64,000 nucleotides of DNA from Firmicutes bacterium CAG:95 (GTDB lineage Bacteria; Bacillota; Clostridia; Lachnospirales; Lachnospiraceae), in NCBI GenBank assembly GCA_000438155.1, contig FR902981.1, positions 22,734 through 86,733 on the forward strand, written 5' to 3'. Under the pieces are notes generated by a model that had not been told where the DNA came from, did no database searches, and worked only from the letters and a program-made list of their open reading frames with translations. A program made the position numbers and the translations under genes. Below, one piece after another: positions 29,211-55,079 of this stretch. The stretch's first letter is position 1; every line of letters begins with the position of its first letter.

Positions 29211-29257
29211 AAAGATTAAAATACAGAAAGATAAGGAAGATCAGGGATATCAGGAAT

Positions 29258-35929: not shown

Positions 35930-36664
35930 ATGGAAAATCAAAATGAACGTGATGAAATAGAAATTGATCTTGTGGAGTTGTTTTATGTCCTGTGGGGACA
36001 TGTGTGGCTGATCTTAAGTATCGGTCTTTTTTGTGCGCTCAGCTGTTTTGCTCTAAGCAAGTTCGTAATTGCTCCGACGTATAAGTCTACAACCAAAATA
36101 TATATTTTAAATAAGAGCGACAGTTCTTCTGTTACCTACAGTGACGTGCAGATGGGGACACAGCTTACGAAGGATTATACGGAGCTGATCAACAGCCGTT
36201 ATGTATTGGAGGCTGTGATTCAGGAGCTTGGTTTAAATATGGAATACAAAGATCTGCTTAAGAAGATCGATGTAACAACGCCGAGTGATACGCGAATCGT
36301 TTCGATTACCGTAGAGGATCACGATCCGGTGCAGGCAATGAATATAGCGAATTCTGTAAGAGAAAATGCAAGCACCCATATTCAGAATGTTATGGACATT
36401 GACGCAGTTAATGTAGCAGAGACGGCCAATATGCCAACCGAAAAGGCATCCCCGGGCTGCTCAAAATGGGCACTTATCGGAGGACTGCTTGGATGTCTTG
36501 GAATCAGTGCAATAATTCTGATTCGTTATCTCATGGATGATACGATCAAGTCGTCGGATGATATTGAGAAGTATCTGGGCTTAAGCACACTGGCACTGAT
36601 TCCCATGAAGGAAGATGAGGTCAATTCCAAAAAGAAAAAGAAGAAGCATAAACAGAGTAAGTAA
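35930..36664 (+). CDS. Wzz/CpsC/YwqC-type chain-length determinant, the transmembrane modulator of a BY-kinase
   Basis: EIDLVELFYVLWGHVWLILSIGLFCAL N-terminal TM. Second TM near the C-terminus (WALIGGLLGCLGISAIILI), then a K-rich tail. Confidence 0.75.
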   Translation: MENQNERDEIEIDLVELFYVLWGHVWLILSIGLFCALSCFALSKFVIAPTYKSTTKIYILNKSDSSSVTYSDVQMGTQLTKDYTELINSRYVLEAVIQELGLNMEYKDLLKKIDVTTPSDTRIVSITVEDHDPVQAMNIANSVRENASTHIQNVMDIDAVNVAETANMPTEKASPGCSKWALIGGLLGCLGISAIILIRYLMDDTIKSSDDIEKYLGLSTLALIPMKEDEVNSKKKKKKHKQSK

Positions 36665-36739
36665 GGTGTTAAGGAATAACGGGATGATCCCGGATGGGAT
36701 CACGAAGGAAACATAGAGAAGCACGGGAAGATAAGGAGA

Positions 36740-37660
36740 ATGACCATGGATGAGTTAACCATGCAGCATGTATCTTTACGATTTGATAAATCTGAGGATT
36801 ACCGGATTAAAGAAGCATTCAAAACATTGCGCACCAACATTGAATTCAGCGGTGCAGACTTAAAGGTAATCGCCGTAACCAGCTGTACTCCGAATGAAGG
36901 AAAAAGCTCGGTTGCCATGGAACTTGCCAAAGCTTTTGCAGAGGCAGGAAAACGGACACTGCTTATCGATGCCGATATGCGTAAGTCTGTATTAGTAGGG
37001 AGATACAAAACAGGTGCAGTGCGCCTGGGTTTGACTCACATTCTGGTGGGACGGGAGAAACTGAGTGATGTGATCTGTAAAACAAACTTCCCCAAGTTGT
37101 ACATGATTTTTGCAGGCCCCGTTCCACCTAACCCCAGTGAGCTTCTTGGCGGAGAAAATTTTGAACGCCTGATTAATAAAGCAAAGCAGCTGTTTGATTA
37201 TGTGATTGTGGATACTCCACCGCTTGGGAGTGTAATTGATGCAGCAGTTGCTGCCAAGAAGTGTGATGGAACCATTCTTGTTATTGAGAACAATGCGATC
37301 AGTTATAAATTTGCACAAAATGTAAAAGCACAGCTTGACAAGACAGAAAGCCGTATCCTGGGTGTCGTTCTTAACAAGGTGGATATGAGTACGAAGAGCT
37401 ATGGTCATTATGGTAAATACTATGGCAAATATTATGGAAAATATTACGGACAATACGGAAATGAAGGCGGACATGCGAAGACAACAGATCTGAGCAGGCA
37501 GGGAGCGGAAGAAGCCGGAGCAGAAGCAGGAATGCGTGCTTCAAGAAAATTAACCGAGAAGCGTCCGATGGATTCGACAGTAGAAGAAAGTGCAGAATCG
37601 GATCTGAATCTGGATGAGATGCTGGATAGAGGTTCTGACTTAGAAGAGATAAATTTGTAG
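36740..37660 (+). CDS. Bacterial tyrosine protein kinase (CpsD/YwqD BY-kinase) with an extended C-terminal tyrosine cluster
   Basis: Walker A (TSCTPNEGKSSVAMELA), Walker A'/B, and the Y-cluster KSYGHYGKYYGKYYGKYYGQYG, followed by an acidic tail. Confidence 0.8.
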   Translation: MTMDELTMQHVSLRFDKSEDYRIKEAFKTLRTNIEFSGADLKVIAVTSCTPNEGKSSVAMELAKAFAEAGKRTLLIDADMRKSVLVGRYKTGAVRLGLTHILVGREKLSDVICKTNFPKLYMIFAGPVPPNPSELLGGENFERLINKAKQLFDYVIVDTPPLGSVIDAAVAAKKCDGTILVIENNAISYKFAQNVKAQLDKTESRILGVVLNKVDMSTKSYGHYGKYYGKYYGKYYGQYGNEGGHAKTTDLSRQGAEEAGAEAGMRASRKLTEKRPMDSTVEESAESDLNLDEMLDRGSDLEEINL

Positions 37661-37745
37661 TCTGAACTGATTTGAAAAGATGCGCGAACAGTATATGCTG
37701 TCGGAAAAATTACAGCCGGAATAAATGTGACAGAGGAATAAAAGT

Positions 37746-38639
37746 ATGAAAGACAGTGGAAAATGGGCAGTTGTTTTTACCGTTTTAAATATCATATTGA
37801 TTACCGTTTGTGTGGTGCTGCTGCTTAATAAGGACAGGAAACCGCCGGTAATTTCTTTTTCCGGAAATGACCTGATTTATTACAGTGGCATTGACAATGA
37901 GAAGCTTCTGCAGGGAGTGGGCGCTGTAGATGCCAAGGACGGAGATGTCACAGACCGGATCGTAGTAGAAAAGATTGTTCAGAATAAGAATGAAAACCGA
38001 GCCATTGTTTATTATGCGGTAACGGATCTTGACGGAAATGCGGCGAAAGCATCCAGAGTGTTTGAAGCAGTAAACGAAGCTACCGGAGATGCTATGAAGG
38101 ATATCGGAATGGCAGGATTTGACGGAGACATGGATGGATCGCTTCCGGGTGAGCCGGAGACTTTGGAACCTGCAGATGCACAGGAAGAAGAACTACAGGC
38201 CACAGCAAATGCAGAAGATACGTCGGAAGAGGATACAGAAGCTGAAAGTTCTCCTTCCGTATCACCGACACCGGATATAGAGGAACAACGCCGTAAAGAG
38301 CAGGAAGAGGCGGACCGGAAGGCACAGGAAGAGGAAGAGCAAAGACAACAGGAAGAAGCGAGGAGACGGCAGGAGGAGGAAGCTGCTGCCAAGGCCGGAA
38401 ATCCGAAAATTATCTTAAAGAGTACTACCGTAAATGCGACCGCCGGGCAGCTTCCGGCATGGATTGATGCGGTTGGGAGCTTTCAGGATGATAAGGATGG
38501 ATATGAGACGTTATTTAAGAATCTGAAGGCGTCCAAATATGATGTCAATGCCAGGGGAGATCATGCCGTAACGCTGACGACGACAGACTCTGATGGGAAT
38601 GTGTCGGATCCGGTGAGTGTGACGGTGCATGTGAAGTGA
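37746..38639 (+). CDS. Membrane-anchored protein with two Ig-like (DUF5011-type) domains separated by an acidic E/Q/R linker
   Basis: N-terminal TM. The blocks DGDVTDRIVVEKI...YYAVTDLDGNAAKASR and ...YDVNARGDHAVTLTTTDSDGNVSDPVSVTVHV resemble bacterial Ig-like repeats. Confidence 0.45.
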   Translation: MKDSGKWAVVFTVLNIILITVCVVLLLNKDRKPPVISFSGNDLIYYSGIDNEKLLQGVGAVDAKDGDVTDRIVVEKIVQNKNENRAIVYYAVTDLDGNAAKASRVFEAVNEATGDAMKDIGMAGFDGDMDGSLPGEPETLEPADAQEEELQATANAEDTSEEDTEAESSPSVSPTPDIEEQRRKEQEEADRKAQEEEEQRQQEEARRRQEEEAAAKAGNPKIILKSTTVNATAGQLPAWIDAVGSFQDDKDGYETLFKNLKASKYDVNARGDHAVTLTTTDSDGNVSDPVSVTVHVK

Positions 38640-39001
38640 TTGATTGGACGGATATTGAGTGCCGGACGGACGCTCAACCGACGGAATATCAACGCAGACA
38701 CGCGGCGTTTCCTACTCGGCTCGTGCGTCGATTAACCGGCAGTCGCGCAAACTCGTCCTCCGGACTCAGACAGTGCGTTTGGTGCCGGTAACTGGCACAA
38801 GCCTCCTGACGGAAGCCTTGCGAAAGGTCTGCTTGTGATATTTCGTCGGTAGAGCTGAGTGTGGAAGAATGGACTTAATGGAAGAAAAAATGCCAGTTGA
38901 AGAATAATAGTTAGTGGATAGCAATTAATGAATAACAGAATGGATCCTTGGATGATGAGTAAGAACATAAGAGTTCATCCGGGATAAAAGGGTAAAAAGT
39001 A

Positions 39002-40162
39002 GTGAATAATTTGCTGACAAATAAGAAAAACAGAAGAGACCGTGTGGCGAATCTGGAGAAGTCACAGATTCTGGATCCGGAAAAGGTGAAGCGTGATAAG
39101 AAGCGTAAACGCAAGGTGGTTGCGTTGACTGTACTTGCTGCGATTACGGGACTGCTTGCAGCTGCATTTGCAGCGTTCCTGATTGTGGGAGCGATTGGTA
39201 AGGCAAACCTGCGCAGCAATGTGATTGCGGCGCCAAAGCTTGAAAATGCGCCGGTGGTGATAGAACTGCAACCGACAGAGGAAGAAGCTGCAGGCTGGAA
39301 AGAGGGCTGGGTGAAGTATAACGGTCAGATTTATGCATATAACGAGGATATTCTGACATTCCTTATCATGGGAATTGATAAGACGAAGGATGTGAAGGAA
39401 GTAGCGGAAGGAACAAACGGCGGACAGGCCGATGCCCTGTTCCTGGTGGTATTAAATCCGCATGATAATTCCTTAAGTGTCATTGGCATTAACCGGAATA
39501 CAATGACGGATATTTCTGTTTATGATGATAACGGTGCCTATGTTAATACGATTAAAGCGCAGATTACCGTGCAGCACGGCTTTGGGAATGGTGTGGAAGA
39601 AAGCTGTGAGTATCAGGTGAATGCTGTACAGCATCTGTTCTATGAAATGCCGGTTCATGGGTATGCAGCCATTAATATGAGTGCGATCGGACCACTTACG
39701 GATATGGTAGGTGGTGTGGATGTAGTGGCACTGGAGGATATTAAGAGTGGAAACAGCACCGTAATTAAGGAGGGTGAGGAGGTTCATCTGGAGGGTGATC
39801 TTGCTTTTGCCTATATTCATAATCGTGATACGAAGGAGTTCGGTTCTGCGGATCATCGTTTGGAGCGTCAGAAGCAGTTTATTACGACGTATTTGCAGAA
39901 GGTAAAGCAAAAGACAAAGGAAGACATTGGATTTCCGATTTCCGTATATCAGTCGATCGCTCCGCAGACTGTTACCAGTCTGACGGTGGATGAGATGACC
40001 TATCTGGTATCCATAGCAAAGGATTACAGCTTTGATGAGAATTATCTCTATACCCTGAAGGGAGAAACAAAGCAGGGGGATGTATTCGAGGAGTTTTATG
40101 TGGATGAGACCGATCTGTTTGAATTGATTCTAAAGGTATTCTATGAGCCGGTGGAGCAGTAA
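39002..40162 (+). CDS. LytR-CpsA-Psr (LCP) family cell-envelope glycopolymer transferase
   Basis: N-terminal TM, then the LCP core (DALFLVVLNPHDNSLSVIGINRNTMTD...QHGFGNG). Confidence 0.8.
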   Translation: MNNLLTNKKNRRDRVANLEKSQILDPEKVKRDKKRKRKVVALTVLAAITGLLAAAFAAFLIVGAIGKANLRSNVIAAPKLENAPVVIELQPTEEEAAGWKEGWVKYNGQIYAYNEDILTFLIMGIDKTKDVKEVAEGTNGGQADALFLVVLNPHDNSLSVIGINRNTMTDISVYDDNGAYVNTIKAQITVQHGFGNGVEESCEYQVNAVQHLFYEMPVHGYAAINMSAIGPLTDMVGGVDVVALEDIKSGNSTVIKEGEEVHLEGDLAFAYIHNRDTKEFGSADHRLERQKQFITTYLQKVKQKTKEDIGFPISVYQSIAPQTVTSLTVDEMTYLVSIAKDYSFDENYLYTLKGETKQGDVFEEFYVDETDLFELILKVFYEPVEQ

Positions 40163-40258
40163 TTGCAGATAACAGAGAAGTACAGGCATAACAAGTACAA
40201 GCATAAGAAGCATAAAGGATATTCAGAAAACAGCAAGAGGTATCAAAAGAAACCAACG

Positions 40259-41140
40259 ATGAGATGTGTAAAAAAATCAGAAATGAAAAATCAGATCAGA
40301 CAGAAAACAATAAGTAAATTAATGACTGTAATCGTGAGTATCCTGCTGATATTGGGAGCATTCAGTGGATGCGGTTCTTCTAATACAGACAACAGGGAGG
40401 ATACAGCAGGAACGGAAGAGCAGACATCAGAGAGTGTATCAGAGAGTACACCGGAGGCAGAAGAAAATCGTACCGGACTTCAGTTTGAAACGGCAAAGGA
40501 TGGACGAATTGACTTTACGGTTTTACAGGAAGAAAATCCGGAGATCTGGGGATGGCTGTATATTCCGGGAACGGATATTGACCGGCCGCTTTTGCAGAGT
40601 GCTACATCGGATACTTATTATCAGAATCATATGGCAGATGGACAGGAAGGAGAGGCAGGGGCTCTTTATATCGAGATTCCGAATCAGACAAACCTCTGTG
40701 ACTTCAATACCGTGATTCATGGAAAGGATCAGAAGGAAGGAGATCTTTTCTATGAACTGCATAAGTTTGAAGAGCCTGATTTCTTTAATGAACATGAGGC
40801 ACTTTATATTTACACACCGGATAATGTATATACCTATAGTATTTATGCTGCCTACTATGATGAGGGCAGTGATATTCTGCGAAGATACGACTATACCACC
40901 TATCAGGGGTGCAATGCATATCTTGCGGATTACTATGACCGAAGAGACATGACTATGAATAAGAGGGATGGCTGGGAGGACATCACAGCCGGACATTTCC
41001 TTCTGACACTCGATGGAATAACAACAGGAGACCGACAGTTCGTTGTGATGGCAGGACTTGTAAATGCAGGCGTGGCAAGCATGGACCGTATGATATTCGA
41101 TGGAACCGACTTCGTATATGACTTTGAGGACGAAGAGTAA
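40259..41140 (+). CDS. Sortase-B-fold lipoprotein lacking the catalytic His and Cys (pseudo-sortase). Start taken at an internal ATG before a lipoprotein signal peptide.
   Basis: Signal and lipobox (MKNQIRQKTISKLMTVIVSILLILGAFSGC). Class B sortase landmarks (NPEIWGWLYIPGTDIDRPLLQ; DRQFVVMAGLV with the conserved Arg). The His position reads IHGKDQ instead of YGHN, and the TLXTC position reads LTLDGIT, so the Cys is absent. Confidence 0.5.
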   Translation: MRCVKKSEMKNQIRQKTISKLMTVIVSILLILGAFSGCGSSNTDNREDTAGTEEQTSESVSESTPEAEENRTGLQFETAKDGRIDFTVLQEENPEIWGWLYIPGTDIDRPLLQSATSDTYYQNHMADGQEGEAGALYIEIPNQTNLCDFNTVIHGKDQKEGDLFYELHKFEEPDFFNEHEALYIYTPDNVYTYSIYAAYYDEGSDILRRYDYTTYQGCNAYLADYYDRRDMTMNKRDGWEDITAGHFLLTLDGITTGDRQFVVMAGLVNAGVASMDRMIFDGTDFVYDFEDEE

Positions 41141-41213
41141 TGTATTGATATCTGCATCGAAAGATGTTGATATAAACCACACTTAATTTTGCAAGAAGGG
41201 AGGAATTGGTCCA

Positions 41214-41768
41214 ATGAAGAAACTTATTGCATTAGTATCTGCAGCAGCAGTTCTTGTAATGCCTATGGCAGTATGCGCAGCTCCTTCACCGTCAGCAGGT
41301 GCAGTAGTAGCAGCATCTACACAGAGCGCACAGAACAGCGCTGTTGAAACAGCAGCAGCTGAAGTAAGCATGTCTGTTGGTGAATACACAAACAATGCGA
41401 TTGTATCTACTCCCGGACTCTCTGCTGCTGACACTTTGCCAGTAGGACAGGGCGGAAAGATCATCGTTAATGGTGTAGCAACCAATATGACTGTTATCTT
41501 AAGAAAGGTTGACGCTGCAACCGTTAAATCTGCTAAGACAGCAGCAACAGGAAAGATCCTTAACCTCGTTAATGCGAAGCTTCCTGTAGCAAAAGGAAAC
41601 ACTGTAACCGTTAACTTCTATGTTAAAGGCTTAGCCGGAACAGAGAATGTTACTGTATTACAGCTTGTAAATGGTGAATGGGTTCCGGTTACCGTTAAGG
41701 AAATCAGACTCGACCATATCGTACTCGACCTGACACAGTCCGGTCCTGTAATGTTCGTTCAGAACTAA
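41214..41768 (+). CDS. Secreted Ala/Val-rich protein, function unknown
   Basis: Signal peptide (MKKLIALVSAAAVLVMPMAVCAAP). 184 aa. Strong RBS gaagggagg. Confidence 0.5.
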   Translation: MKKLIALVSAAAVLVMPMAVCAAPSPSAGAVVAASTQSAQNSAVETAAAEVSMSVGEYTNNAIVSTPGLSAADTLPVGQGGKIIVNGVATNMTVILRKVDAATVKSAKTAATGKILNLVNAKLPVAKGNTVTVNFYVKGLAGTENVTVLQLVNGEWVPVTVKEIRLDHIVLDLTQSGPVMFVQN

Positions 41769-41803
41769 TAATCTGAACAAAATTTAGAAACTAGTTTTTA
41801 TCA

Positions 41804-41845
41804 ATAGGTAATTGCGAAACTCGCTAGGCTCGTTCGCAATCTTGA
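41804..41845. repeat. 42-bp direct repeat, copy 1 (ataggtaattgcgaaactcgctaggctcgttcgcaatcttga), containing a 9-bp hairpin
   Basis: Exact 42/42 identity with 43979-44020. It overlaps the 5' end of the AraC-HTH ORF. Confidence 0.8.
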
Positions 41846-42285
41846 TTACGCTGGATCGAATGGCTAAAATCAGCGAAAAGATTAACCACTCACAAACGAT
41901 TGATGAGGCCATCGACAGCCTGTGGTATTTTTGGCTTCAGTACACAGCCGAACAATCCCTGCAGCATCCGGAAATCCGCAGGGCACTGGAGCTCATCAAT
42001 AAGCATCTGGATCAGCCAATTACACTGCAGTTCATTGCCAAACAGGTGGGCTTAAGCTCCCACTACCTGAGCCGCCTTTTCCACGCGGAAACCGGAAAGC
42101 CTTTTAATCAATACGTTATAGAGGCCAAAATGCAGCGGGCCGCGAAGCTCCTGCGTGAATCCACAATGAAGGTCTATGAAGTGTCAGACAGTATCGGAAT
42201 TCCCAATTACCGATATTTCGCGGCGCTGTTCAAAAAGCATTGGGGTATGACACCGATAGATTATAGAAAGAATGTGATGAAATGA
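41812..42285 (+). CDS. AraC-family HTH domain protein. It looks like a receiver-less remnant of a YesN-type response regulator. Start uncertain (TTG at 41812 or ATG at 41860).
   Basis: Only the two-HTH AraC DNA-binding domain is present (LQFIAKQVGLSSHYLSRLF...IPNYRYFAALFKKHWGMTPIDY). There is no REC or ligand domain. It is translationally coupled (ATGA overlap) to a YesM-like kinase. Confidence 0.6.
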   Translation: MRNSLGSFAILITLDRMAKISEKINHSQTIDEAIDSLWYFWLQYTAEQSLQHPEIRRALELINKHLDQPITLQFIAKQVGLSSHYLSRLFHAETGKPFNQYVIEAKMQRAAKLLRESTMKVYEVSDSIGIPNYRYFAALFKKHWGMTPIDYRKNVMK

Positions 42286-43982
42286 GAGTACGGAGAAAGC
42301 ATTTGTTCCACTGGGGACTCACCCAGCGTCTGTTCGTAATGACATCCACTATCTCCATTGCAGTGTTGGCCATCATGGCTTTATACGGCTATAATTCCGC
42401 TCATAAGGCCCTCGAACGGCAAATCGCCAGCAACATCTCCAGCTTGAACGACCGTACCCTCAGCTATGTTGACAGCTATGTAGAGAGTGCCCAAAGCCTT
42501 GGCCGTATGATTGCCGCGGATCGTGGAACCGGCATCAGACAGTCTGAGCGTATCGGTATCTTAATTAACACCTTCAGTCAAACCCTCTATCCCGTCGCCC
42601 GCACTATTTATTATATACCTGCCAACGGTGAAGTAATTTCCACTCGTCAGACTTATTATGACATCATGGGAAATAAGATGCTGCCGCTGCTGGCAGAAAG
42701 TGCACAGGATAGTCTCACCGGCCTCGCCTGGAGCCAGCCGTATCACTCTCCTGTTTCCGGTGACACCGTTGCCTTTTCACTGGCTGTAGAGGACCAGCCA
42801 AATGACGAAAAGGGTGTCTTAGTCATAGAACTGGATCTGGGTTACATCAAAAATGATCTGGACCGTTTTCTTCATAAAGGGAACCAGTCTTATCTGCTAA
42901 TGACATCAGAAGGGAACGTCATCCTTTTTAATCGTAATACAGATTTACTGCAATACGAAAACGACACCCTGCGCACCTCTATCGCACCGCAAATGATTGC
43001 CGAGCTGGCAGACTGCCCTCAGGGAATCTCCTATTTACCCAAAGAAGCTCCTTCCTTGCTCGTCACCCGTTCGCCTATCAATCGACTGGGTTGGTCGCTA
43101 TTCACGCTTGTCAACAGCGACAGCATTTTTGCGGCGTACAACAAAACCCTGACCAGGACCTACATTAACGCCGGAATCCTGATTCTGGTGGTTTTGTTGG
43201 GTGTATGTTTCTTCTTAAGCCGCAAATTCGTTTCTCCCATTCGTGAACTGGATGAGAAGATGAGCCATTTTTCCAAGACGCAGCTCAATGAGCCCCTGCC
43301 CGTCAAAAGAAGCGATGAGATCGGTCACTTGACGGAAAGCTATAATCAAATGCTCATGCGCTTAAAACGCCTCATCCGGGAGGTTAAGCAAAGTGAAAAA
43401 GAAAAACAGAATTACAAGATTCAGATGCTGCAAAGCCAAATCAAGCCCCACTTCCTTTATAACACGTTAGCCTGCATCAGAAGCCTGGCGAAGCAAAACA
43501 GAATGGAGGAAATCCGTGAGACAATCTCCTCTCTGGTGGGACTTTTGGCTTATACCTTCGATAAGACGGATGATTTTGTAACCATCAACGAAGAAATTCA
43601 GTCACTCAAAAAGTATATACAAATTCAGCATATGCGATATGGAGATGTCTTCCATATAGAATATCAGATCAGTCCCGATACCAGCGAGTGTTATTGTCCA
43701 AAGCTCACGCTGCAGCCAATCGTTGAAAACGCAATCTTTCATGGAATCTTACCCGCCGAGGAAAATGGAGCTATCCGAATCGAAACAAAGATTTACAACG
43801 AAGAATTGCACATATTTGTAAAAGATAATGGGATTGGATTTAGTGCAGACCGATTTGAGAAGATATTGGCAGGTATCGAGCCGGACAACAATTCCAATGC
43901 ATTCAATCATGTAGGACTTAAAAATGTAAACAACCGGATTATTCTTAATTATGGAGACACTTACGGTATTCATATTTTATAG
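42282..43982 (+). CDS. Sensor histidine kinase of the YesM/LytS family (TM-extracellular-TM, HAMP, His_kinase, HATPase_c)
   Basis: Two TM helices flanking a periplasmic-type domain. Phospho-acceptor block QIKPHFLYNTLACIRSLA and a GHKL ATPase C-terminus. Confidence 0.8.
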   Translation: MRVRRKHLFHWGLTQRLFVMTSTISIAVLAIMALYGYNSAHKALERQIASNISSLNDRTLSYVDSYVESAQSLGRMIAADRGTGIRQSERIGILINTFSQTLYPVARTIYYIPANGEVISTRQTYYDIMGNKMLPLLAESAQDSLTGLAWSQPYHSPVSGDTVAFSLAVEDQPNDEKGVLVIELDLGYIKNDLDRFLHKGNQSYLLMTSEGNVILFNRNTDLLQYENDTLRTSIAPQMIAELADCPQGISYLPKEAPSLLVTRSPINRLGWSLFTLVNSDSIFAAYNKTLTRTYINAGILILVVLLGVCFFLSRKFVSPIRELDEKMSHFSKTQLNEPLPVKRSDEIGHLTESYNQMLMRLKRLIREVKQSEKEKQNYKIQMLQSQIKPHFLYNTLACIRSLAKQNRMEEIRETISSLVGLLAYTFDKTDDFVTINEEIQSLKKYIQIQHMRYGDVFHIEYQISPDTSECYCPKLTLQPIVENAIFHGILPAEENGAIRIETKIYNEELHIFVKDNGIGFSADRFEKILAGIEPDNNSNAFNHVGLKNVNNRIILNYGDTYGIHIL

Positions 43983-44020
43983 GTAATTGCGAAACTCGCT
44001 AGGCTCGTTCGCAATCTTGA
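43979..44020. repeat. 42-bp direct repeat, copy 2
   Basis: Identical to 41804-41845. It begins inside the HK stop codon. Confidence 0.8.
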
Positions 44021-44213
44021 AAGAAAACAAGGAAGAATTCGCGCAGAGCACGAATTCTGGAATGAAAAATGGATAACTGGACATTTTAGGCGCACTTTAA
44101 TAAGCTATGGGCTTTATGAAGTGGTAAGTCCTAAGCTATGAGTGGTTTTATGCTTCGAATATATTCGTGATGATTGATTTTATCTGCGAGAACAACAGTA
44201 ATAAACGTATACT

Positions 44214-44657
44214 TTATTGTTCGCTTGTTTCCAGCCTTTCCACTTGTACCGATATGTCATCGGATAGTTTTGCTGAATATTCTTGATTCAAAAAATCAAA
44301 GCAGGCTTTACAATAAAATTCATTATTGTATTGATATATCTCAAAATTTATAAGTCTGTTTTCGTCTGTTTTTTGCTGTTCCACCGATTTTTGCTTGTCA
44401 GCCTGAAATATAACTATCCTTTTATACCTCATGGCTTCTTCTGGGATTCCGACATTTTCGCTTTCTACGTCTAAAAAGAAATCACATATCTGATTAACTA
44501 AATCATCTATTGTTTCATTAGTAGAATCGTATTCTTTTTCTGTGTTATCTGAATAATCATAAATCACAATAATCTGATCTTTGCTGCTATCTCCACAACC
44601 ACTAATTAACAAACAAATAAATGCAACTAACAAAATCATTATATTTTTGATATGCAT
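44214..44657 (-). CDS. Lipoprotein, function unknown
   Basis: Signal and lipobox (MHIKNIMILLVAFICLLISGCGDSS). Confidence 0.5.
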   Translation of the reverse strand: MHIKNIMILLVAFICLLISGCGDSSKDQIIVIYDYSDNTEKEYDSTNETIDDLVNQICDFFLDVESENVGIPEEAMRYKRIVIFQADKQKSVEQQKTDENRLINFEIYQYNNEFYCKACFDFLNQEYSAKLSDDISVQVERLETSEQ

Positions 44658-44710
44658 GCCTTCTCTTAATTTTTTTCATTATTATTTCAAATTTCCTTTC
44701 ATTGTTGTGG

Positions 44711-45061
44711 CTAATCACTATTTTTGGACGGGATTTCAATAATAATATTTTGTGCAAGCCCTCTTAATAATTCTTTTGTGATTTGCAGTTTAAAATCTTC
44801 CAGCGCATAATACTTCATGGCTTTACCACTTTCAGATATTTCCATTGCACTTGTAACAAGTCGAGCTGTTTCTAGCTTCTTTAAATGCATATAAAGCAAA
44901 GGCCTGCTAATATTTACCAATCGGGCTAGTTCACTCACATATTGTCGTCCCTCTGCCAATATACCGATTATCTTTATCCGTACTGGATGCGAAAGAGCGT
45001 CAAAAACATTGATGTAATCTTCGTATTTATTTAATTTTAAATCTCCAACAATATTTTCCAT
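44711..45061 (-). CDS. ArsR/SmtB-family winged-helix transcriptional regulator
   Basis: ALSHPVRIKIIGILAEGRQYVSELARLVNISRPLLYMHLKKLETARLV. Confidence 0.7.
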   Translation of the reverse strand: MENIVGDLKLNKYEDYINVFDALSHPVRIKIIGILAEGRQYVSELARLVNISRPLLYMHLKKLETARLVTSAMEISESGKAMKYYALEDFKLQITKELLRGLAQNIIIEIPSKNSD

Positions 45062-45063
45062 AA

Positions 45064-45297
45064 TTAAATATCTTTCATCATTTTATCAATGACTTCGACT
45101 TTTTCTTTTACCGTCTGTAAGTCCTTTTTTATTTCGGCATTTTCACGCCTCATATCTTCTGCAAAACTGTCAAACTTTGCTACATCAACGCTCTTAATTC
45201 TTTCTCTTTTTTCCATACTCCGAATAATCAGAATAATTGAAACAAGAATAACAATACCAATTGTTCCAATTACAGGAATAATAATAGAAATATTCAT
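45064..45297 (-). CDS. Small bitopic membrane protein with a coiled-coil tail, first gene of a 3-gene operon with ArsR
   Basis: N-terminal TM (MNISIIIPVIGTIGIVILVSIILII), then a charged helical region. Its stop is 2 nt from the ArsR start. Confidence 0.4.
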   Translation of the reverse strand: MNISIIIPVIGTIGIVILVSIILIIRSMEKRERIKSVDVAKFDSFAEDMRRENAEIKKDLQTVKEKVEVIDKMMKDI

Positions 45298-45657
45298 TCT
45301 CTTGTTCTCCTTTTAATATATTTTTATCATGTGTAAATACTTTATTATACATGATAAAAAATGTCAACATCAAATTAGAATATAAAAAGTATATATGTAA
45401 CTTCTATTGGAAGCATATCAGCTTTTAATGCTAGAGTAGATAGGTTAGAATGAGTTCAACACAATAGAAAGTCAAAAATCAGAAACTTAAGAGTACATTA
45501 AGGATTCTACATTAGAGTTACTAGATGTACGGACAAGCACGACATTTTCATTTGCGAATATTTCACATACTAGAATTAAAAAATGTATTTAAATATCAAT
45601 CTTGAAATTATCATGCCAATGTCTGTAATCAATAACATTCTCTCCATAAATTTGGAT

Positions 45658-46107
45658 TTAGTATAAGTCAATATGACGCTTATGGAAATTGAACATATCT
45701 ATAAAGAAACGTATTCCATCACATCTTACCCCTAAAAGAGGTTTTGGTATCAAACAATTTGAATCTTTTGTAAAAGGTTCAGTTATTGCTTTACTATAGA
45801 TATAGATTTCCTCCACATCATCCCGGTACAGATAACGTGTCAGAAAAGAAAAACCTGTCATCTCCCCATAAAGGAGATCGCAGAGTTCCGCCTGCTCCAT
45901 TCCTTCTACACCCACGTTGCTCTGTTCCAGATATTTTCCGATGTAGGATTCAATCAGCTCCCGGTTCTCATCCGGATTGTCACGAAGCACAGAAGCGAAA
46001 TTCTTAGATATATACTCCTGCACATCCTTCAATACTTCCGGGAAAGTACGGTATATCACACTTTTGTTTAACATCCCGGCAGTTTCATGTATGCCCCATA
46101 TTTTCAT
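45658..46107 (-). CDS. Hypothetical protein, divergent from the MazF-like gene
   Basis: 149-aa ORF with no recognisable motif. Confidence 0.35.
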   Translation of the reverse strand: MKIWGIHETAGMLNKSVIYRTFPEVLKDVQEYISKNFASVLRDNPDENRELIESYIGKYLEQSNVGVEGMEQAELCDLLYGEMTGFSFLTRYLYRDDVEEIYIYSKAITEPFTKDSNCLIPKPLLGVRCDGIRFFIDMFNFHKRHIDLY

Positions 46108-46308
46108 TCTTCAAACCCCTTGGTCTGGTTGCAATATACCGGATATGGGCATAGTTTGCTCCCGGTGTGTCCTTTTTGTTCGGATGCCGGAAACGCTGCT
46201 TATACACTAAGATTGACATTATTTTCTACCTTTCTCCGTGTTATTTTGTTGTACTCTGTCACATTATCTGCTAAAATTAGGAATACAAACCTGCAAAGGA
46301 GAATTGCC

Positions 46309-46992
46309 TTGAAACATACAGCAACATTAGAAGATACGCGCCATTCCTTTGATGAAATGGCTTCCTCGTTACAAAATCATTTTCAGCAGATTAATCTGGA
46401 AGAACCGAAAAACGTCAAACTTGCCAATGAATACTATAAATGGACTTCATTAAAAACAAATCTGATTCTGAATGAAAAAGCCTTTCAAATACCCTCCTCC
46501 GCCCTGCCCAATGTCATCAAGCCATCCGCATTTAAGTGGCTGCACAGCGATAAACAAGCAGTAGTGTCAAAATACTATCAGTACGACAAAGCTACCGATA
46601 AATATGTGATTGCTGTCAAAAAAAGTATCGTGCCGGAAACGGATATTGAACTGATTATGCGCTCTCTTGTACTGATTCGGAAAGCTGTTGTCTGGGTAGA
46701 TTTCGGTTATAACATCGGCACGGAATTTGGCGGCAGGCATCCGGCAATCATACTGAAAAATTTAAAGGATTCCCTTATCGTTATTCCTTTATCTTCACAA
46801 ATGCCCAAAACTATGGACTGCAATATAATGGTTGATAAGGTCTACGGTTTTCCTGAAATGCCGCGCTGGGCAAATGTAACAAGGATTACACAGGTCAGCC
46901 TTTCCAGAGTCCACTTCGAGAAGTTTGGTGATGTAAAACCCGGCGTATTAAAAGAAATCCGTGAAAAACTGGTTTCCTGCGGTATCATTTAG
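46309..46992 (+). CDS. MazF/PemK-fold endoribonuclease toxin domain fused to an N-terminal approximately 110-aa domain of unknown function
   Basis: The C-terminal half matches the MazF/PemK core (AVVWVDFGYNIGTEFGGRHPAIIL ... SLIVIPLSSQ; compare E. coli MazF IWVDFDPTKGSEQAGHRPAVVL ... CLCVPCTTQ). TTG start at 46309 with RBS aaaggagaa and a 5-nt spacer. The alternative ATG is at 46357. Confidence 0.55.
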   Translation: MKHTATLEDTRHSFDEMASSLQNHFQQINLEEPKNVKLANEYYKWTSLKTNLILNEKAFQIPSSALPNVIKPSAFKWLHSDKQAVVSKYYQYDKATDKYVIAVKKSIVPETDIELIMRSLVLIRKAVVWVDFGYNIGTEFGGRHPAIILKNLKDSLIVIPLSSQMPKTMDCNIMVDKVYGFPEMPRWANVTRITQVSLSRVHFEKFGDVKPGVLKEIREKLVSCGII

Positions 46993-47034
46993 GCTTTTTC
47001 TGCATACTTTATTACTGCTACAAAATGTTTGACA

Positions 47035-47685
47035 TCACTGCTGCTTTGTGCTAGTATGATGATGTAAACGTAGGAGCAATCCTGGTAATTTTGTAACCGT
47101 GAAGCCGTCATTTATGGCGGCTTCTTTTCGTACTATAATATATTTGATACCGTTTTCAATCTTCCTCTCCTTCCCTTTCCTCTGCATCTGCTTCTTCCAT
47201 TTGGACCGCCAGCCGCTCTCCCATTCTTTGCAATCCTTCGTATATCCTCTTTGTTTTCTCATAAGGTGCTGCATCCAAAACCAGCTCCGGCTCCCCACTT
47301 TCATTCTCCTGTAGCAGCACAGAAACCTCTCCACTGGATATGTGAAGATAGCGTTGCAGGCAATCTCCATCCACGGATAGATAAGACGGGACAGTTCATG
47401 GGGCGTGGCGGTCGTCCTGCTGTTCCATGAGAAAAGGTTATGTGCCATAGACAAAAGCTGGCTCTGATACTCCTCCAGATTTCCTTTACATGATCTTTTG
47501 ATTTTGTCAAAGGAAATACCATATGGATCCACACATTTTTTTGCTGCCTCAAAAAGCTCCGGTACACTGGATAAAATGTAAAAGGCTGCCCGATAGTCAG
47601 AATCCAGTTTCTTCCCTTCGGTCAGCCCTACAAGATGCTCATATCTTTGTGCCTGATTCACTTTTGCTCTCCTCCCAATAATCAC
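47035..47685 (-). pseudogene. Frameshifted gene of unknown function. The N-terminal part is in one frame and the C-terminal part continues in the frame of ORF 47156..47374.
   Basis: Upstream of about 47380 the protein looks normal (..TATPHELSRLIYPW). Downstream in the same frame it is K/R/W-rich nonsense. The -1 frame instead gives a plausible continuation (DGDCLQRYLHISSGEVSVLLQENESGEPELVLDAAPYEKTKRIYEGLQRMGERLAVQMEEADAEE). Confidence 0.45.
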
Positions 47686-47692
47686 TTAATAA

Positions 47693-48016
47693 CTACTCTC
47701 CCATACATAAATCCGCTTCCTGTTCTTCTTCGATGAAAACACCATGATCGCACATTCCTGTTATTTGATCTAGAAGTTCCTTGGTCTGTATGGGACTGGT
47801 TGCCATAGTCAGCTTTTGTTGTCTGTAATCATAACTGTATACTTCATCAGACAGCACTTCCTCAGGTGCAACCTGTGTTCTATTTATTTCCATTACCATG
47901 CGTTGAAGTTCCTCCGCATTCATATCTCCATTATCCTTCATCAGGATAACTTCATGGATACTGCTGGGAAGAATGAAAAAATTACTTTGTGTTGCTTCCC
48001 CGATTTCCTGTAACAA
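47693..48016 (-). CDS. Hypothetical acidic protein (mobile-element associated?)
   Basis: 107-aa ORF in an operon with the ParB-like gene. Confidence 0.35.
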   Translation of the reverse strand: MLQEIGEATQSNFFILPSSIHEVILMKDNGDMNAEELQRMVMEINRTQVAPEEVLSDEVYSYDYRQQKLTMATSPIQTKELLDQITGMCDHGVFIEEEQEADLCMGE

Positions 48017-48045
48017 ATTTGGATAAAGTATGGCTGTTGCACCAT

Positions 48046-48543
48046 TTATTTCCGATTATCAAGAAGCTCCATAAGTGGAGAAATCAAAGAGGCTATGCGA
48101 AGATACTTTGCAATTTTATCTTTCCCAAGACAGTATTCCTCGCTGACTTTTTCATTAGCATTTAACTTTTTCCGAATTTCAGACCAAGTCCCGTTTTCCC
48201 CAATTTCATGCGGGTTTACGAGTTCTTCAATCTCTTTTATCAGATCATTTCTCCGCCCCTGGCTTTTGATTGCATCATAGTGCTGTTTCAGACAATATGC
48301 CTTTTCAGAGGGGCTTAAATCATCAAAAGAACGCTGGCGCAGATTTGTCTCTGTCGCAATCAGAATGGCATCCTCATAGGTCAGATTTTCCTTGATAATG
48401 ACCGGACCTTTGGTAAGTCCGGCGATACTTCCTGCGTTCTGTCTGTTATGTCCGCTTAAAATCGTGTTTTTTCCGTCATGTACCCATACGTTTGCTTCCT
48501 TTCTCTTGTTGAATTTGTTATTTTGGTTACATTGGATTCTCAT
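48046..48543 (-). CDS. ParB/Srx-like nuclease-domain protein
   Basis: ILSGHNRQNAGSIAGL plus downstream helical region matches the ParB N-terminal (sulfiredoxin-fold) domain, common on ICEs, plasmids and phage. Confidence 0.5.
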   Translation of the reverse strand: MRIQCNQNNKFNKRKEANVWVHDGKNTILSGHNRQNAGSIAGLTKGPVIIKENLTYEDAILIATETNLRQRSFDDLSPSEKAYCLKQHYDAIKSQGRRNDLIKEIEELVNPHEIGENGTWSEIRKKLNANEKVSEEYCLGKDKIAKYLRIASLISPLMELLDNRK

Positions 48544-48710
48544 ACAGGCAACGAGCCAAGATCAGGCTTGCTGAACCTTAGCGACTGCCCATAGTTTCAA
48601 TTTCATATGACACTTGGATAAAAGTAGGACTGTTCACTTACCTCCTCTGTTCTTGTGCGGCAGCTAAATCAGCCTCTATCCTGCAATTTCCTTTTCCAGC
48701 CTTTTTCCGG

Positions 48711-48762
48711 GCGAAAAAACGGGACTAAAAGAGCCTGCATAGAAGAAGGCTAATTTAGTCCC
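48711..48762 (-). terminator. Rho-independent terminator on the minus strand downstream of the S8 protease gene
   Basis: gggactaaa...tttagtccc hairpin. On the minus strand it is followed by guuuuuucgc. Confidence 0.45.
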
Positions 48763-48957
48763 ACTCAAAATTCATTTTTTGCATTTTGTAGCTTATTACC
48801 GCAAACAACCCTCCTTATGTTACATAATTGCTACATCATGCGATTTTACTCCAAAATATGATTGCAAACAGGCCTGTCCTAACCAAACTTCTGAATAAAA
48901 TCAGTATTTTTCATTAGGACTGAATTAGCGGAATCCCCTTTGTTTACGGGCTTCTTA

Positions 48958-50652
48958 CTAACGTAACCTTATTATATCCCCCTCCCCCCATTCCATAAGA
49001 AGTGCAGCACTTCCTGAAGCAAAGGGCGTGGCAAAGGAGGTTCCTGACACGGCAACCGGAACATTTCCCGGACTTAACGTTTTAATGTTTACTCCTGGTG
49101 CTACAAAATCCGGTTTTATGTTAATCGATGAAGGAGGCATATTCCTGCCTCTTCCAGAAAAATCCGCATAGGCTTCAGTATAGGTATCATAGGCCCCAAC
49201 GGTAATCACTCTGGCTGCTGTAGAAGGTATCGTCAGTGTCTTTTCCGGTGTTGACTGAAAAAAGCGGGTTTCCACGCTAAGCACAGAGCTGCTTGGCAGA
49301 TAGAAGTCATACCCTCCACCTTCCACCTGTACCGGCTCTATCATAAAGCTCCAGACCCCTTGGTTAACATAACTATTCGCCGGTAAAAAATCAAAATATA
49401 TTTCCTGTCTGACGGAATACGGGGTGGGCTCACCCTGATAAATCAAAAGCTCTGTATCTTCCATCCGATAACGCACGGCTGTATCTAATGCAGAATTAAG
49501 CTGCAGGATCTGCCCTCCGGGAGATTGTAAGACAATCCGGAAGGTATCAGTATACTCCTTCCATAGCTGCACACTGAATGACGCCTGATACTCACCAACT
49601 GCCAATTCGGTCCGTGGTATATTTCCCTGTGCATCCCTGTTAAATGTTCCGGCTGCATGCCCTCCGGCTGCTCCCTCATTGCCACTCCCTACACAGATCA
49701 CACATCTCCCGAGCTCTGCAATATTATCAAGGAACCTCTCTACAAGTGATGTTCCGTCATGAACCCCATAGGTATTTCCAAAGCTCAGATTAATCACAAG
49801 CGGCATGGAGAGCTGCAGTGCCGTCCGGGCAGCAAAGGTAAGTCCCCTCATCAGTTCTGTAGTCTTGGGAAAAGAATTCGGTCTGCTGTTCCCGAGCTTT
49901 ACAATCAGCAGTTCTGCTTCCGGTGCCACTCCCTGAAACCTGCCATCCATAAAATTCCCTGATCCTGCCGCAATCGTTGCAACTGCGGTTCCATGTCCGG
50001 AAGTGTCCACACTTGGCACGAGCTGTAACGGTGCAGTACTCTGCAATGCCGCATCAATCCGTTCTTTCGAAAACATGACTCCCTGGGTAAAGCCTTCAGG
50101 CGGTAAGCTTTGCATAAATTCTTCATTATGATCCGTAAGAAGTACATCCACCTCCTTCGGATTTAATGTCTGATCCCATAAATAACGGATTCTCGTTTTT
50201 CCACCTTTTTCCTGAAACTCCGGACTCTGATAATCAATTCCGGAATCCAGTATGGCCATTAATACTCCTTTCCCAGACAGGAACGGATCTCTCACCGTAA
50301 CCTCCGGGATACAGGAGGTCTGCTTCCCGTCCAGCACCGAAAAATACAACCGCTTTGGTTTTTCGATATATTCTACCTCCGGCAGCTCCGCAAACGACTC
50401 AATCAGAGATTCCGGTAGTGTTACGATCGCATAGCCTGCAATCAATTCCTCTACCTGTATCAGATCCCCAGACAGCGGCTGCAGGCTTCCGTTGTATTTC
50501 ACAATCAGCTCCCAGCGTTTCTCCTCCTCCAGATATCCCACATCCAGCTGTCTGGACTTTTCCCGTTCTTCCCCGGTTGCCTCTAATGACAGATTTAATA
50601 CACCTTCCAGCTTCTGATTCTGCATCCTTTTCCCCCACAATTCTATCTGCAT
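48958..50652 (-). CDS. Subtilisin-like S8 serine protease without a signal peptide. It is possibly a CspB-like germination protease, or a pro-peptide processing protease.
   Basis: Catalytic triad contexts AILDSGID (Asp), SGHGTAVATIAAG (His) and GTSFATPFASGSAALL (Ser). 564 aa with an N-terminal prodomain-like region and no secretion signal. Confidence 0.7.
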   Translation of the reverse strand: MQIELWGKRMQNQKLEGVLNLSLEATGEEREKSRQLDVGYLEEEKRWELIVKYNGSLQPLSGDLIQVEELIAGYAIVTLPESLIESFAELPEVEYIEKPKRLYFSVLDGKQTSCIPEVTVRDPFLSGKGVLMAILDSGIDYQSPEFQEKGGKTRIRYLWDQTLNPKEVDVLLTDHNEEFMQSLPPEGFTQGVMFSKERIDAALQSTAPLQLVPSVDTSGHGTAVATIAAGSGNFMDGRFQGVAPEAELLIVKLGNSRPNSFPKTTELMRGLTFAARTALQLSMPLVINLSFGNTYGVHDGTSLVERFLDNIAELGRCVICVGSGNEGAAGGHAAGTFNRDAQGNIPRTELAVGEYQASFSVQLWKEYTDTFRIVLQSPGGQILQLNSALDTAVRYRMEDTELLIYQGEPTPYSVRQEIYFDFLPANSYVNQGVWSFMIEPVQVEGGGYDFYLPSSSVLSVETRFFQSTPEKTLTIPSTAARVITVGAYDTYTEAYADFSGRGRNMPPSSINIKPDFVAPGVNIKTLSPGNVPVAVSGTSFATPFASGSAALLMEWGEGDIIRLR

Positions 50653-50832
50653 AGCAGTTCTGTTAGTTAAGGAGACTGCCCACTCCTGAATTAAATTCTT
50701 GCGAAGCCTGACATCATGTGTCCGGCTGCTGTTTAAATACTAACAATTGTTACATATATATACGCAAGAAATAAATTGAATATTTCTGACAGATCCGATA
50801 AAATGTAATTTATAAAATATAACCAGGGAAAT

Positions 50833-51810
50833 TTGATTATGATTAACAATTCCGAAGATATACAAAAACAGACTGATCAGCGCATATGCTTTTCCGGGGA
50901 AACTGAATATCCGGTTCACGTTACCTATGTGGATCTGAACCGTTCCTATATGAACCGGATTGGCTGGAACTGGCATCCGGAAATTGAGGTATTTCTGGTG
51001 GAAGAAGGCTCTGCCATTATTTATTACGATGACAGCCAGATATCCCTGGAGGTCGGACAGGGCGTGATTATCAATCAGAATGTCATGCATTCCATTCTTT
51101 CTGTTTCTCCGTCCCAGAGCTGCAAACTGTTTTCCTATGCCTTCCACCCTTCCTTTCTGTTCGGTTATGGAGATACTCTGTTTACCAGTAAATATGTAAC
51201 CCCTCTGCTTCATCATGCAGGTCTCCGGGCACTTCACCTTCATTCTTCCGATGAAGGACTTGCCCATATTCTGTCCCTTTCCTACCGGATCGTCCAGTTA
51301 AATAAGGATCAGGAATGGGGCTATGAACTGGCAACCAAAGCCTGTATCTGTGAGCTCTGGTGTGAACTTCTCAGAAAGTTTCCTTTCACCCCGGAAAAGA
51401 CCCGGCACACAGCAGTTCTCACCTCCGATGAACTCCGTACCAGGGAAATTATGAAATACATTGAAATCCATTATGCTGAACGCATCACACTGGATGATCT
51501 TGCAGCCCAGGTACACATCAGCAAAAGCGAGTGTTGCCGCTGTGTTAAGCGCTGCCTTCACATGACACCGGTCGAATATCTGATGAAATACCGCATCTAT
51601 ATGGCGGCCTATCTGATTCAGAAAAATGATCCTGCCGTATCTTCTATTTCAGATCTTGCCTTTCAGGTTGGCTTTAACAATGCCAGCTATTTCAATAAGG
51701 TGTTCCGGCAGTACCTGCAGTGTACTCCCGGAGAATTCCGTAAGAAGATTCGCCAGAACCCGGATTTTCAACCTTTTCATACTGACTTTTATTCGGAAAA
51801 TCTCTCCTGA
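50833..51810 (+). CDS. AraC-family transcriptional regulator (cupin-type sensor domain plus HTH)
   Basis: The C-terminal two-HTH AraC domain (LDDLAAQVHISKSECCRCVKRCLHMTPVEYL...GFNNASYFNKVFRQY). Confidence 0.8.
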   Translation: MIMINNSEDIQKQTDQRICFSGETEYPVHVTYVDLNRSYMNRIGWNWHPEIEVFLVEEGSAIIYYDDSQISLEVGQGVIINQNVMHSILSVSPSQSCKLFSYAFHPSFLFGYGDTLFTSKYVTPLLHHAGLRALHLHSSDEGLAHILSLSYRIVQLNKDQEWGYELATKACICELWCELLRKFPFTPEKTRHTAVLTSDELRTREIMKYIEIHYAERITLDDLAAQVHISKSECCRCVKRCLHMTPVEYLMKYRIYMAAYLIQKNDPAVSSISDLAFQVGFNNASYFNKVFRQYLQCTPGEFRKKIRQNPDFQPFHTDFYSENLS

Positions 51811-53211: not shown

Positions 53212-53220
53212 ATCCTGCTC

Positions 53221-53535
53221 CTAGTTGATGATATTGGATTCCAGACCGCTTCCCTGTTCCATATTGCCGCTTTCCGCTCTCTGGTAATGACCGGCCATCT
53301 CCGTCAGATCCTGTGAATGCTCCGCAATCATCCGGTAAAGCTTATCCATATCCGTCTGCAGGGTTTTAAAACGGGTCAGAAACGTTCCGGACGCTTCTCC
53401 CTGCCAGATTCCCTGCAGTGAATCCACCAGGGTCATCATTTCTCCTGTCAGATTCTTTACCTGTGTTCCTGTTGTTGCAAATGTACCGGATGCCTGAATC
53501 AGTTTTTCCGGTGTAACCTTTAAAATACCTTCCAT
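53221..53535 (-). CDS. esxA: WXG100 (EsxA-like) protein
   Basis: About 100-aa helical hairpin protein with the central WXG motif (LQGIWQGEASGTF). Confidence 0.75.
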   Translation of the reverse strand: MEGILKVTPEKLIQASGTFATTGTQVKNLTGEMMTLVDSLQGIWQGEASGTFLTRFKTLQTDMDKLYRMIAEHSQDLTEMAGHYQRAESGNMEQGSGLESNIIN

Positions 53536-53558
53536 ATGCTGTATCCTCCCGATTTTAT

Positions 53559-53858
53559 TTAGTAACTGCGTGATGCTGCAATTTCTGCATTTCTTGCTTC
53601 CACCTCTTCATATCTGGCGGCAATTTCAAGCATGACCTCAACATATCGCTCAATCAGCTTCTCAAAGAGAAGCATCTGCTCCTTATCCCTTGCAAATGCG
53701 TGGTGAAAGGCTTCCTTGGCCTGCCCATCCCACATACTGCACAATTCCTGTTCCTGGGAATCCAGTTCATTGCACTTTGCCCGGAACTGACCGTTTAAGC
53801 CCCGTAAGTTTTCCGCCTTATTTCTTAATTCTCTTGAAGTAACCTCAAAAAATGCCAT
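53559..53858 (-). CDS. WXG100-like small helical protein
   Basis: 99 aa, W-x-G at CSMWDGQAKEAF. Confidence 0.65.
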   Translation of the reverse strand: MAFFEVTSRELRNKAENLRGLNGQFRAKCNELDSQEQELCSMWDGQAKEAFHHAFARDKEQMLLFEKLIERYVEVMLEIAARYEEVEARNAEIAASRSY

Positions 53859-53869
53859 AATATCCCTCC

Positions 53870-54455: not shown

Positions 54456-54459
54456 ATCT

Positions 54460-54756: not shown

Positions 54757-54829
54757 GGTAACCTTGTCCTTTCTACCCGGTTTTGTAATCCAATATCCAT
54801 TCTAAATTTCATTTTCAAGCGCTTCCTGC

Positions 54830-55075: not shown

Positions 55076-55079
55076 ACCT

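Follow-up and report, generated by a model that had tools for sequence, protein, structure and literature searches.

The 64-kb window analyzed here, a stretch of DNA from Firmicutes bacterium CAG:95, carries two overlapping open reading frames (ORFs) of a two-component system, namely an AraC-type regulator reduced to its helix-turn-helix (HTH) domain and a YesM-type histidine kinase, and these are bracketed by two exact copies of the 42-mer ATAGGTAATTGCGAAACTCGCTAGGCTCGTTCGCAATCTTGA on the + strand (41804-41845 and 43979-44020). An earlier note on this DNA had reported the repeat with an offset of 2175 bp, and both the spacing and the perfect identity (0 mismatches) were confirmed. No further copy with 3 or fewer mismatches exists in the 64-kb window, where the 42-mer is the sole long exact repeat, and dinucleotide-preserving shuffles of the sequence gave no match (0 of 100). 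Housekeeping proteins encoded in the window are identical to their counterparts in CAG:95, a member of the Lachnospiraceae. Comparison with other human-gut assemblies, in which parts of the window were located by exact-protein look-ups, indicated that the two copies are very probably same-orientation leftovers of one terminus of a multi-copy insertion sequence (IS), and that they bracket the fragment of a broken two-component system.

The first ORF ends at 42285 and starts either from TTG at 41812 or from the first in-frame ATG at 41860 (141 aa); its Pfam matches are limited to HTH_18/HTH_AraC, in agreement with the description of copy 1 as overlapping the 5′ end of an AraC-HTH-only frame. This ORF overlaps the start of the kinase gene (ATGA). 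The second ORF encodes 566 aa with dCache_1, HAMP, His_kinase (PF06580) and partial HATPase_c domains, and copy 2 contains its TAG stop codon, as had likewise been noted; homologues of this kinase are labelled YesM by their source records. In other strains the native regulator has 514 aa, with a receiver (REC) domain at residues 12-124 and the AraC HTH at 420-510, and the native operon consists of the regulator and then the kinase, accompanied by a divergent ABC sugar transporter (one binding protein and two permeases) and an FAD oxidoreductase alongside. The position of the HTH upstream of the kinase, which had been regarded as odd, is thus the native order.

Homology between the native locus and the window is restricted to 41844-43980, over which the DNA identity is 99.95% (1 mismatch in 2137 bp). 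Residues 1-367 of the regulator, comprising the REC domain and a 250-residue middle region, are missing in the window, and the genes of the partner transporter are absent as well. Comparison with orthologous loci therefore yielded the full-length 514-aa regulator with both REC and AraC domains, and the proposal that the receiver was lost by a rearrangement at copy 1 is borne out by the start of homology at 41844. That the kinase is truncated too had escaped the earlier note: the IS end removes its last 19 residues, and with them the last strands of the ATP-binding fold, the TAG stop being formed by the first three bases of the IS, whereas the native sequence runs on from ATTTTAT into TACAAGAGG. 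The HATPase_c profile is accordingly covered from 10 to 88 of 111 positions in the window, compared with 10 to 110 in the native 585-aa kinase (P0001). The pair in the window thus has neither a complete HATPase_c domain nor a regulator with REC and AraC domains, the two features sought for a YesM/YesN pair.

A 141-aa AraC ORF without the repeat does occur in other samples, as the earlier note had allowed for; there the regulator gene is of full length (L017 6322-7866) but carries the nonsense codon W348* (G1043A), and the short ORF behind this codon is a pseudogene, not a member of a REC-less family. The relatives hold either the 514-aa regulator or the W348* version, and the receiver-less regulator of the window is, as judged from this comparison, a truncation remnant and not a representative of a REC-less family. 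The HTH-only ORF and the shortened kinase are most likely rearrangement debris, i.e., putative non-functional pseudogenes. The native operon also decays independently elsewhere, as illustrated by W348*, by a 36-bp gap in the kinase gene (L018), and by a breakpoint at the window-equivalent position 42598 (L024). As the terminator of the upstream 184-aa gene lay beyond the left junction and was lost, the HTH ORF and the kinase may be co-transcribed from that gene by read-through.

The nature of the repeat was revealed by its external copies. Common origin is limited to 41 nt (TAGG...TTGA) of the 42-mer: the leading A of copy 1 (41804) is the end of the conserved left flank and is not homologous to the leading A of copy 2 (43979), which belongs to the kinase codon TTA. 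A contig scan detected the 41-mer in 41 gut-metagenome contigs, where its outer (left) flanks are of at least 30 different kinds and its inner (right) side is invariant. Several different insertion sites were found within single samples, so that the unrelated contexts expected of an active or recently active mobile element are present. Because many unrelated outer flanks are combined with one invariant inner sequence, the 41-mer is the terminus of an IS1182-like insertion sequence. All 41 external 41-mers run on into the IS interior, to the contig limit, in contrast to what a stand-alone repetitive extragenic palindrome, miniature inverted-repeat transposable element (MITE) or terminator would do, and a solo 41-nt copy was seen in the window only. 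Exact scans of the GTDB species-representative genomes with the 42-mer, a query that carried the non-homologous first A, and with the 41-mer gave no match. The mobile origin suspected in the earlier note was therefore upheld, while the supposed independent small family proved to be the outermost 41 nt of an IS of 1769 bp that encodes a transposase.

Complete copies of this IS are 1768-1769 bp in 8 loci, with shorter or cut-off copies in 3 others, and identities range from 95 to 99.9%. The ends are imperfect 16-bp inverted repeats (TAGGnnnTTGCGAAAC), with 13 of 16 positions matching between TAGGTAATTGCGAAAC and the reverse complement TAGGCGTTTGCGAAAC; the far end reads ...GTTTCGCAAACGCCTA, and a subterminal hairpin is possible at both ends. 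The coding content is a single 490-aa transposase ORF on the strand opposite to the 41-mer reading, with Pfam matches to DUF772 (E 7.8e-13, 48.7 bits, cut-off 23.1) and to DDE_Tnp_1 (19.7 bits, slightly under the cut-off of 23). In IS1182 elements, too, the only transposase is of the DDE type and combines a DUF772-type domain at the N terminus with a DDE domain at the C terminus, and the size and inverted repeats also agree with this family, the elements of which are about 1.3-1.95 kb in size. The top NCBIfam model is likewise the IS1182 family transposase (NF033551), with an alignment limited to the C-terminal part (residues 260-461) and a score of 76.3 bits that falls short of the cut-off of 270.

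Target duplications of 12 bp (L054) and 11 bp (L040) were found, and none is evident in 6 of the 8 full copies. The DNA past the far IS end often begins with a ribosome-binding site and ATG (full copies in L040-L059). This suggests that the full copies inserted into short intergenic spacers, as described for IS1272. A related IS on the Butyrivibrio proteoclasticus plasmid pCY360 has 77.5% identity, identical first 20 nt, the same hairpin stem with a different loop, and a 14-bp duplication, and relatives occur in Butyrivibrio, Roseburia and Clostridium. On this plasmid (L084, pCY360 63345-65814), two related copies stand in direct tandem, separated only by the 14-bp TTTATAAATAAATG, which also stands before the first copy; neither copy is annotated in the record. 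The element of the gut strains seems to be an undescribed IS1182-like IS of gut Lachnospiraceae.

Several other identities of the repeat were considered and rejected. The 41-mer forms a DNA hairpin (-6.8 kcal/mol, z-score -2.6 on folding) that is not followed by a T-run, which excludes an intrinsic terminator; of the high-copy terminator element considered in the note, only the high copy number applies, and the repeat owes it to the IS. Nor does the sequence belong to a known RNA family, since Rfam gives no match at E<=1 across 41600-44400. Similarly, an attachment (att) site with an integrated cassette was rejected, as no recombinase is encoded in or next to the bracketed segment, which consists of two gene fragments; in strains with a single repeat copy, that copy lies inside an IS remnant with other neighbours, in contrast to the empty site expected for an att system.

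The features and junctions are listed in Table 1. With blastn, the IS matched the window only through nt 1-226 of the reference copy (43980-44204) and nt 1-41 (41805-41845). Both remnants are the same IS end in direct orientation, and the two copies are hence not two products of one bracketing event, as had been assumed, but remnants of 41 and 225 nt. J1 and J3 fall on the identical base of the 41-mer, which is expected if this base is the IS terminus. The junction between left flank and IS reads TTTTTATCAATAGGTAATTGCG (...TTTTTATCAA followed by TAGG), that between IS nt 41 and the regulator reads CAATCTTGATTACGCTGG, and the 3′ part of the kinase reads TACAAGAGGAGGG. The terminator-like hairpin of the 225-bp remnant is conserved in sequence across all IS copies.

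Table 1. Features and junctions (J1 to J4) around the repeat, in window coordinates.
Feature	Position	Strand	Evidence or remark
Conserved left flank: 184-aa secreted-protein gene (41214-41768) and 36 nt of native 3′ region	41214..41804	+	Match to strains L007-L016
J1, left flank/IS terminus	41804/41805		No microhomology
Repeat copy 1, solo IS remnant (IS nt 1-41) with 16-bp inverted repeat and subterminal hairpin	41805..41845	+	100% identity
J2, IS nt 41/regulator codon 368	41844-41845		2-bp GA microhomology
Regulator 3′ remnant, native codons 368-514, AraC HTH only	41844..42285	+	Homology to native locus (L001, L017, L078, others), Pfam
YesM-type histidine kinase, truncated at codon 566 of 585	42282..43982	+	Domains and native 585-aa protein P0001
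J3, kinase/IS terminus	43979-43981		1-nt ambiguity
225-bp remnant of the same IS end, first 41 nt = repeat copy 2 (43980-44020)	43980..44204	+	blastn 99.6% over 226 nt
Last 23 transposase codons (aa 468-490), pseudogene fragment	44134..44202	-	tblastn 100% over 23 aa
Terminator-like hairpin (11-pair stem) then T-run, between transposase stop and IS terminus	44034..44058	-	Consensus scan
J4, internal IS truncation	44204/44205		
AT-rich module: 147-aa lipoprotein-like, ArsR-type HTH and 77-aa membrane protein genes; start of AT-rich island	44205..45806	-	GC 0.26-0.35; Pfam HTH_5/ArsR

Single parts of this arrangement are shared by other strains. J3, with the regulator 5′ sequence still upstream, was found in six independent samples (L001-L006), the contigs of which end 28-54 nt inside the IS, as a repeat would lead one to expect. 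The right flank, from 54656 down to 43980, is 99.3-99.97% identical in six other strains, IS remnant included; the repeat is present there once and is preceded by different DNA (...TTCACAT, then TAGG...). As the 225-bp remnant has the same J4 and a different left neighbour in these right-flank strains (L027-29 and L034-36), it is older than its junction with the kinase. On the other side, the left flank (genes for DNA ligase, a bile-salt hydrolase, CpsB/Wzz/CpsD-like proteins, LytR, a sortase-like protein and the 184-aa secreted protein) matches ten other strains (L007-L016) up to 41804, beyond which a terminator hairpin and a NusG-like gene come next in these strains, and then polysaccharide clusters that differ among them. 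The locus after the 184-aa gene is a capsule-type variable locus, which is missing here in the window.

The order of events that we infer comprises four steps. An IS copy would first have inserted into the 3′ end of the kinase gene, and homologous recombination between this copy and the older 225-bp remnant, within their common sequence, would then have joined the kinase to the present right flank. A second IS copy would have inserted 36 bp downstream of the 184-aa gene, and finally the remainder of the second IS may have been lost, together with the receiver domain, the polysaccharide cluster and the genes of the partner ABC transporter, in an illegitimate deletion or rearrangement that began at IS nt 42 and ended at regulator codon 368, via the GA microhomology. 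On the left side, more than one scheme is conceivable as to how many steps occurred and how large they were. In its GC skew, the kinase-regulator segment resembles the right-hand block, not the left, and most neighbours of the pair in the native locus are on the opposite strand; both features fit an operon that natively lies beside the right flank in its present orientation. The only activity remaining to the repeat is likely that of a 41-42 bp homology able to delete the 2.1-kb segment.

Several points weigh against this interpretation. J1 and J2 were found in none of the other assemblies examined, so that the structure of copy 1 rests on one sequence; the ORFs specific to the junctions of the window (157 aa, 147 aa, and 42 aa on the minus strand) were likewise found in no other assembly by exact look-up. 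DNA-overlap tiling from the native locus to the left-flank or right-flank loci gave no link that would establish their colinearity. In one metagenome-assembled genome, the kinase gene and the 184-aa gene do not share an 88-kb contig but lie on different ones, and a single deletion would therefore have to be large or preceded by other rearrangements. A full-length IS at the left-flank site was not observed in the 10 strains. The family assignment is loose (76 versus 270 bits), and the element is best described as IS1182-like without being called a member. Loss of function of the two remnants is deduced from their structure, and sequence decay is unusable as a test because, with 1 mismatch in 2137 bp, the event is recent.

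Four other explanations were weighed, and they are given in order of decreasing probability. The first, which is unlikely, is that copy 1 is a templated insertion, in which template switching resembling microhomology-mediated break-induced replication (MMBIR) or fork stalling and template switching (FoSTeS) copied about 41 nt from copy 2 and then moved to the middle of the regulator, without any second IS. The 0-2 bp microhomology at all junctions, the complete identity and proximity (2.1 kb) of the copies, and a 41-mer hairpin that could stall replication are compatible with such a process, as is the lack of a full IS at the left-flank site. However, copy 1 begins within one base of the IS terminus, a position that a random switch would hit in far less than 1% of cases and that IS insertion explains directly. 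An initial idea of tandem duplication or templated insertion, in which copy 2 was thought to be native, was dropped, because the native kinase has 585 aa and the repeat is native to the right flank; the IS finding superseded it.

It is very unlikely that the structure of copy 1 is an assembly or scaffolding artefact, produced when a contig ending inside the repeated IS was abutted to a regulator contig. In favour of an artefact are the restriction of J1 and J2 to this assembly, the contigs of other samples, which typically end 28-55 nt into the IS, and several contigs that start -26 to +16 nt from J2. Nevertheless, the window has no N runs, a junction with a 2-bp overlap cannot arise from de Bruijn assemblers, the sequence runs straight across the 225-bp IS remnant, a point against breaks of this assembly at the IS, and the three flanks are near-identical to real strains up to the junction bases. 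The contig starts near J2 merit a separate remark: six contigs from different samples (L004-L006 and L022-L024) begin in this interval (window-equivalent 41818-41860) and none carries J2, which could reflect either strain polymorphism (an A/G single-nucleotide polymorphism lies 15 nt upstream) or another breakpoint hot spot.

We consider it highly improbable that the solo end, the regulator-kinase pair and the IS form a three-end pseudo-compound transposon of the IS1272/TnSha1 type that was moved by transposase into the left-flank site, at the boundary of the capsule locus. Such a unit would account for a solo 41-nt end that keeps the full inverted repeat and hairpin in the correct orientation to the far IS end, and for a J1 flush with the IS terminus, like a transposase-made junction; extra or duplicated ends and three-end composites have also been reported for IS1182-family elements (PMC5678879). 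In the window, however, the downstream IS lacks both transposase and far end, and strains that lack the cargo have the truncated remnant next to an identical right flank, so that the remnant predates the cargo. In addition, no second copy of the unit occurs among the 41 metagenome matches, and the junction of solo end and regulator would need a separate illegitimate event. If this explanation were true, IS1182-like elements of gut Lachnospiraceae would capture and relocate adjacent DNA by first duplicating one terminus. Least credible of all is a small independent mobile or recombinogenic repeat beside an HTH-only protein that works as a receiver-less partner of the kinase: the ORF is indeed intact from ATG 41860, with an ATGA overlap that keeps translational coupling, and the 141-aa ORF is also called in other samples, but all 41 external 41-mers enter the 1769-bp IS, the 141-aa ORF elsewhere follows W348* in the full-length gene, the kinase is cut in its ATP-binding domain, and the ABC transporter is absent from the window.

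The main value of the origin of the repeat in two remnants of an IS terminus is a correction, in that an apparent receiver-less regulator and a seemingly new small repeat become ordinary IS-driven genome decay, and both ORFs should be marked as pseudogene fragments in annotation. The ends, length and transposase are now defined for an IS1182-like element that is apparently uncatalogued. This element is common in Lachnospiraceae of the human gut and breaks metagenome contigs at predictable positions. With respect to biology, the source strain is without a variable polysaccharide cluster after the 184-aa gene at the window position, and the YesMN-type sugar-sensing operon decays in several independent ways in the species, namely by IS insertion, nonsense codon and internal deletions.

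Some further observations concern the surroundings of the repeat. At least three different polysaccharide biosynthesis clusters follow the NusG-like gene behind the same conserved flank (L007-L016, locus about 10556-20555). To the right, the DNA of 44215-45806 (GC 0.26-0.35) recurs at 98% identity in unrelated gene contexts (L030-L033), and this AT-rich 1.6-kb module, which abuts the IS truncation point, may itself be a mobile cassette. A PemK/MazF-like toxin ORF (46087-46992, +) has 301 aa in the window, compared with a 227-aa call in the near-identical right-flank strains, and the neighbouring ORFs in 45658-48543 gave no Pfam match. In the profile of 36000-56000, the cumulative GC skew has its maximum at about 41.5 kb, where the genes also change orientation; the coincidence of the rearrangement junction with this switch possibly indicates a replication-terminus-like region or a fusion of oppositely oriented blocks.

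Two MITE-like elements were also noticed in the window. The first, of about 156 bp (29048-29202, -), has the inverted repeats GTAACTATTCAG...CTGAATAGTTAC and lies between HflX-like and RluB-like genes, and copies with 83-95% identity occur in the polysaccharide-cluster leader of other strains (L007 10739-10893), in L040 and in L070. No credible Rfam match was obtained for it, the only match in 28700-29400 being a chance-level snoRNA outside the element (E 0.12, 20 versus a cut-off of 75 bits). The second, of about 133 bp (23135-23266), has the related termini GTAACGATTCAGTAC...GTACTGAACAGTTAC, and copies with 95-98% identity are found in the native regulator-kinase locus (L078 2033-2165) and in L011.

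Among known systems, the native allele resembles yesMN of Bacillus subtilis in combining a Cache-HAMP-His_kinase sensor and a REC-AraC regulator beside an ABC sugar transporter, which is divergent here. The locus in the window differs from that system in that residues 1-367 of the regulator and the final 19 of the kinase are missing and no transporter is present, which makes it a remnant and not a variant system. TnSha1 and TnSha2 (cited in PMC5678879) are built on IS1272 and carry a solo inverted repeat in addition. The order of solo IS end, cargo and IS in one orientation is comparable, and the outer ends would form an inverted pair, whereas the IS of the window is truncated without its far end, the cargo consists of two gene fragments, and nothing points to a past movement of the unit. 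A composite transposon would differ in being bounded on both sides by a complete IS copy, the left one of which would adjoin the cargo through its far (CCTA) end.

The IS itself is best compared with IS1272 of staphylococci, which has 16-bp terminal inverted repeats, inserts next to genes often without target duplications, and is known with duplicated 25-bp or solo ends and as three-end composites (PMC5678879). Likewise, our element has one DDE transposase with an N-terminal DUF772 in about 1.8 kb and imperfect 16-bp inverted repeats able to form stem-loops, as in the IS1182 family, and occurs as remnants and as duplicated or solo ends. It may also resemble IS1272 in inserting at intergenic positions just upstream or downstream of genes and in having absent or variable target duplications (0, 11, 12 and 14 bp here). 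It differs in its transposase of 490 aa, compared with 548 aa in IS1272, and in its host, the gut Lachnospiraceae CAG:95, and is a distant relative at best.

IS-mediated deletions and homologous recombination between IS copies leave truncated genes and partial IS copies. The solo remnant of the window differs from the usual products in being unusually short, with 41 nt that are exactly the terminal repeat and hairpin, and the two remnants are unusual in being the same end in direct orientation. In other respects the likeness is close, since IS ends delimit the gene fragments, strains with different neighbours on one side have a partial IS in common, microhomology is present at the non-IS junction, and strain-variable loci (a capsule-type cluster and a sugar-uptake operon) have been lost. 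The phenomenon is known, and the present case is an ordinary consequence of IS activity.

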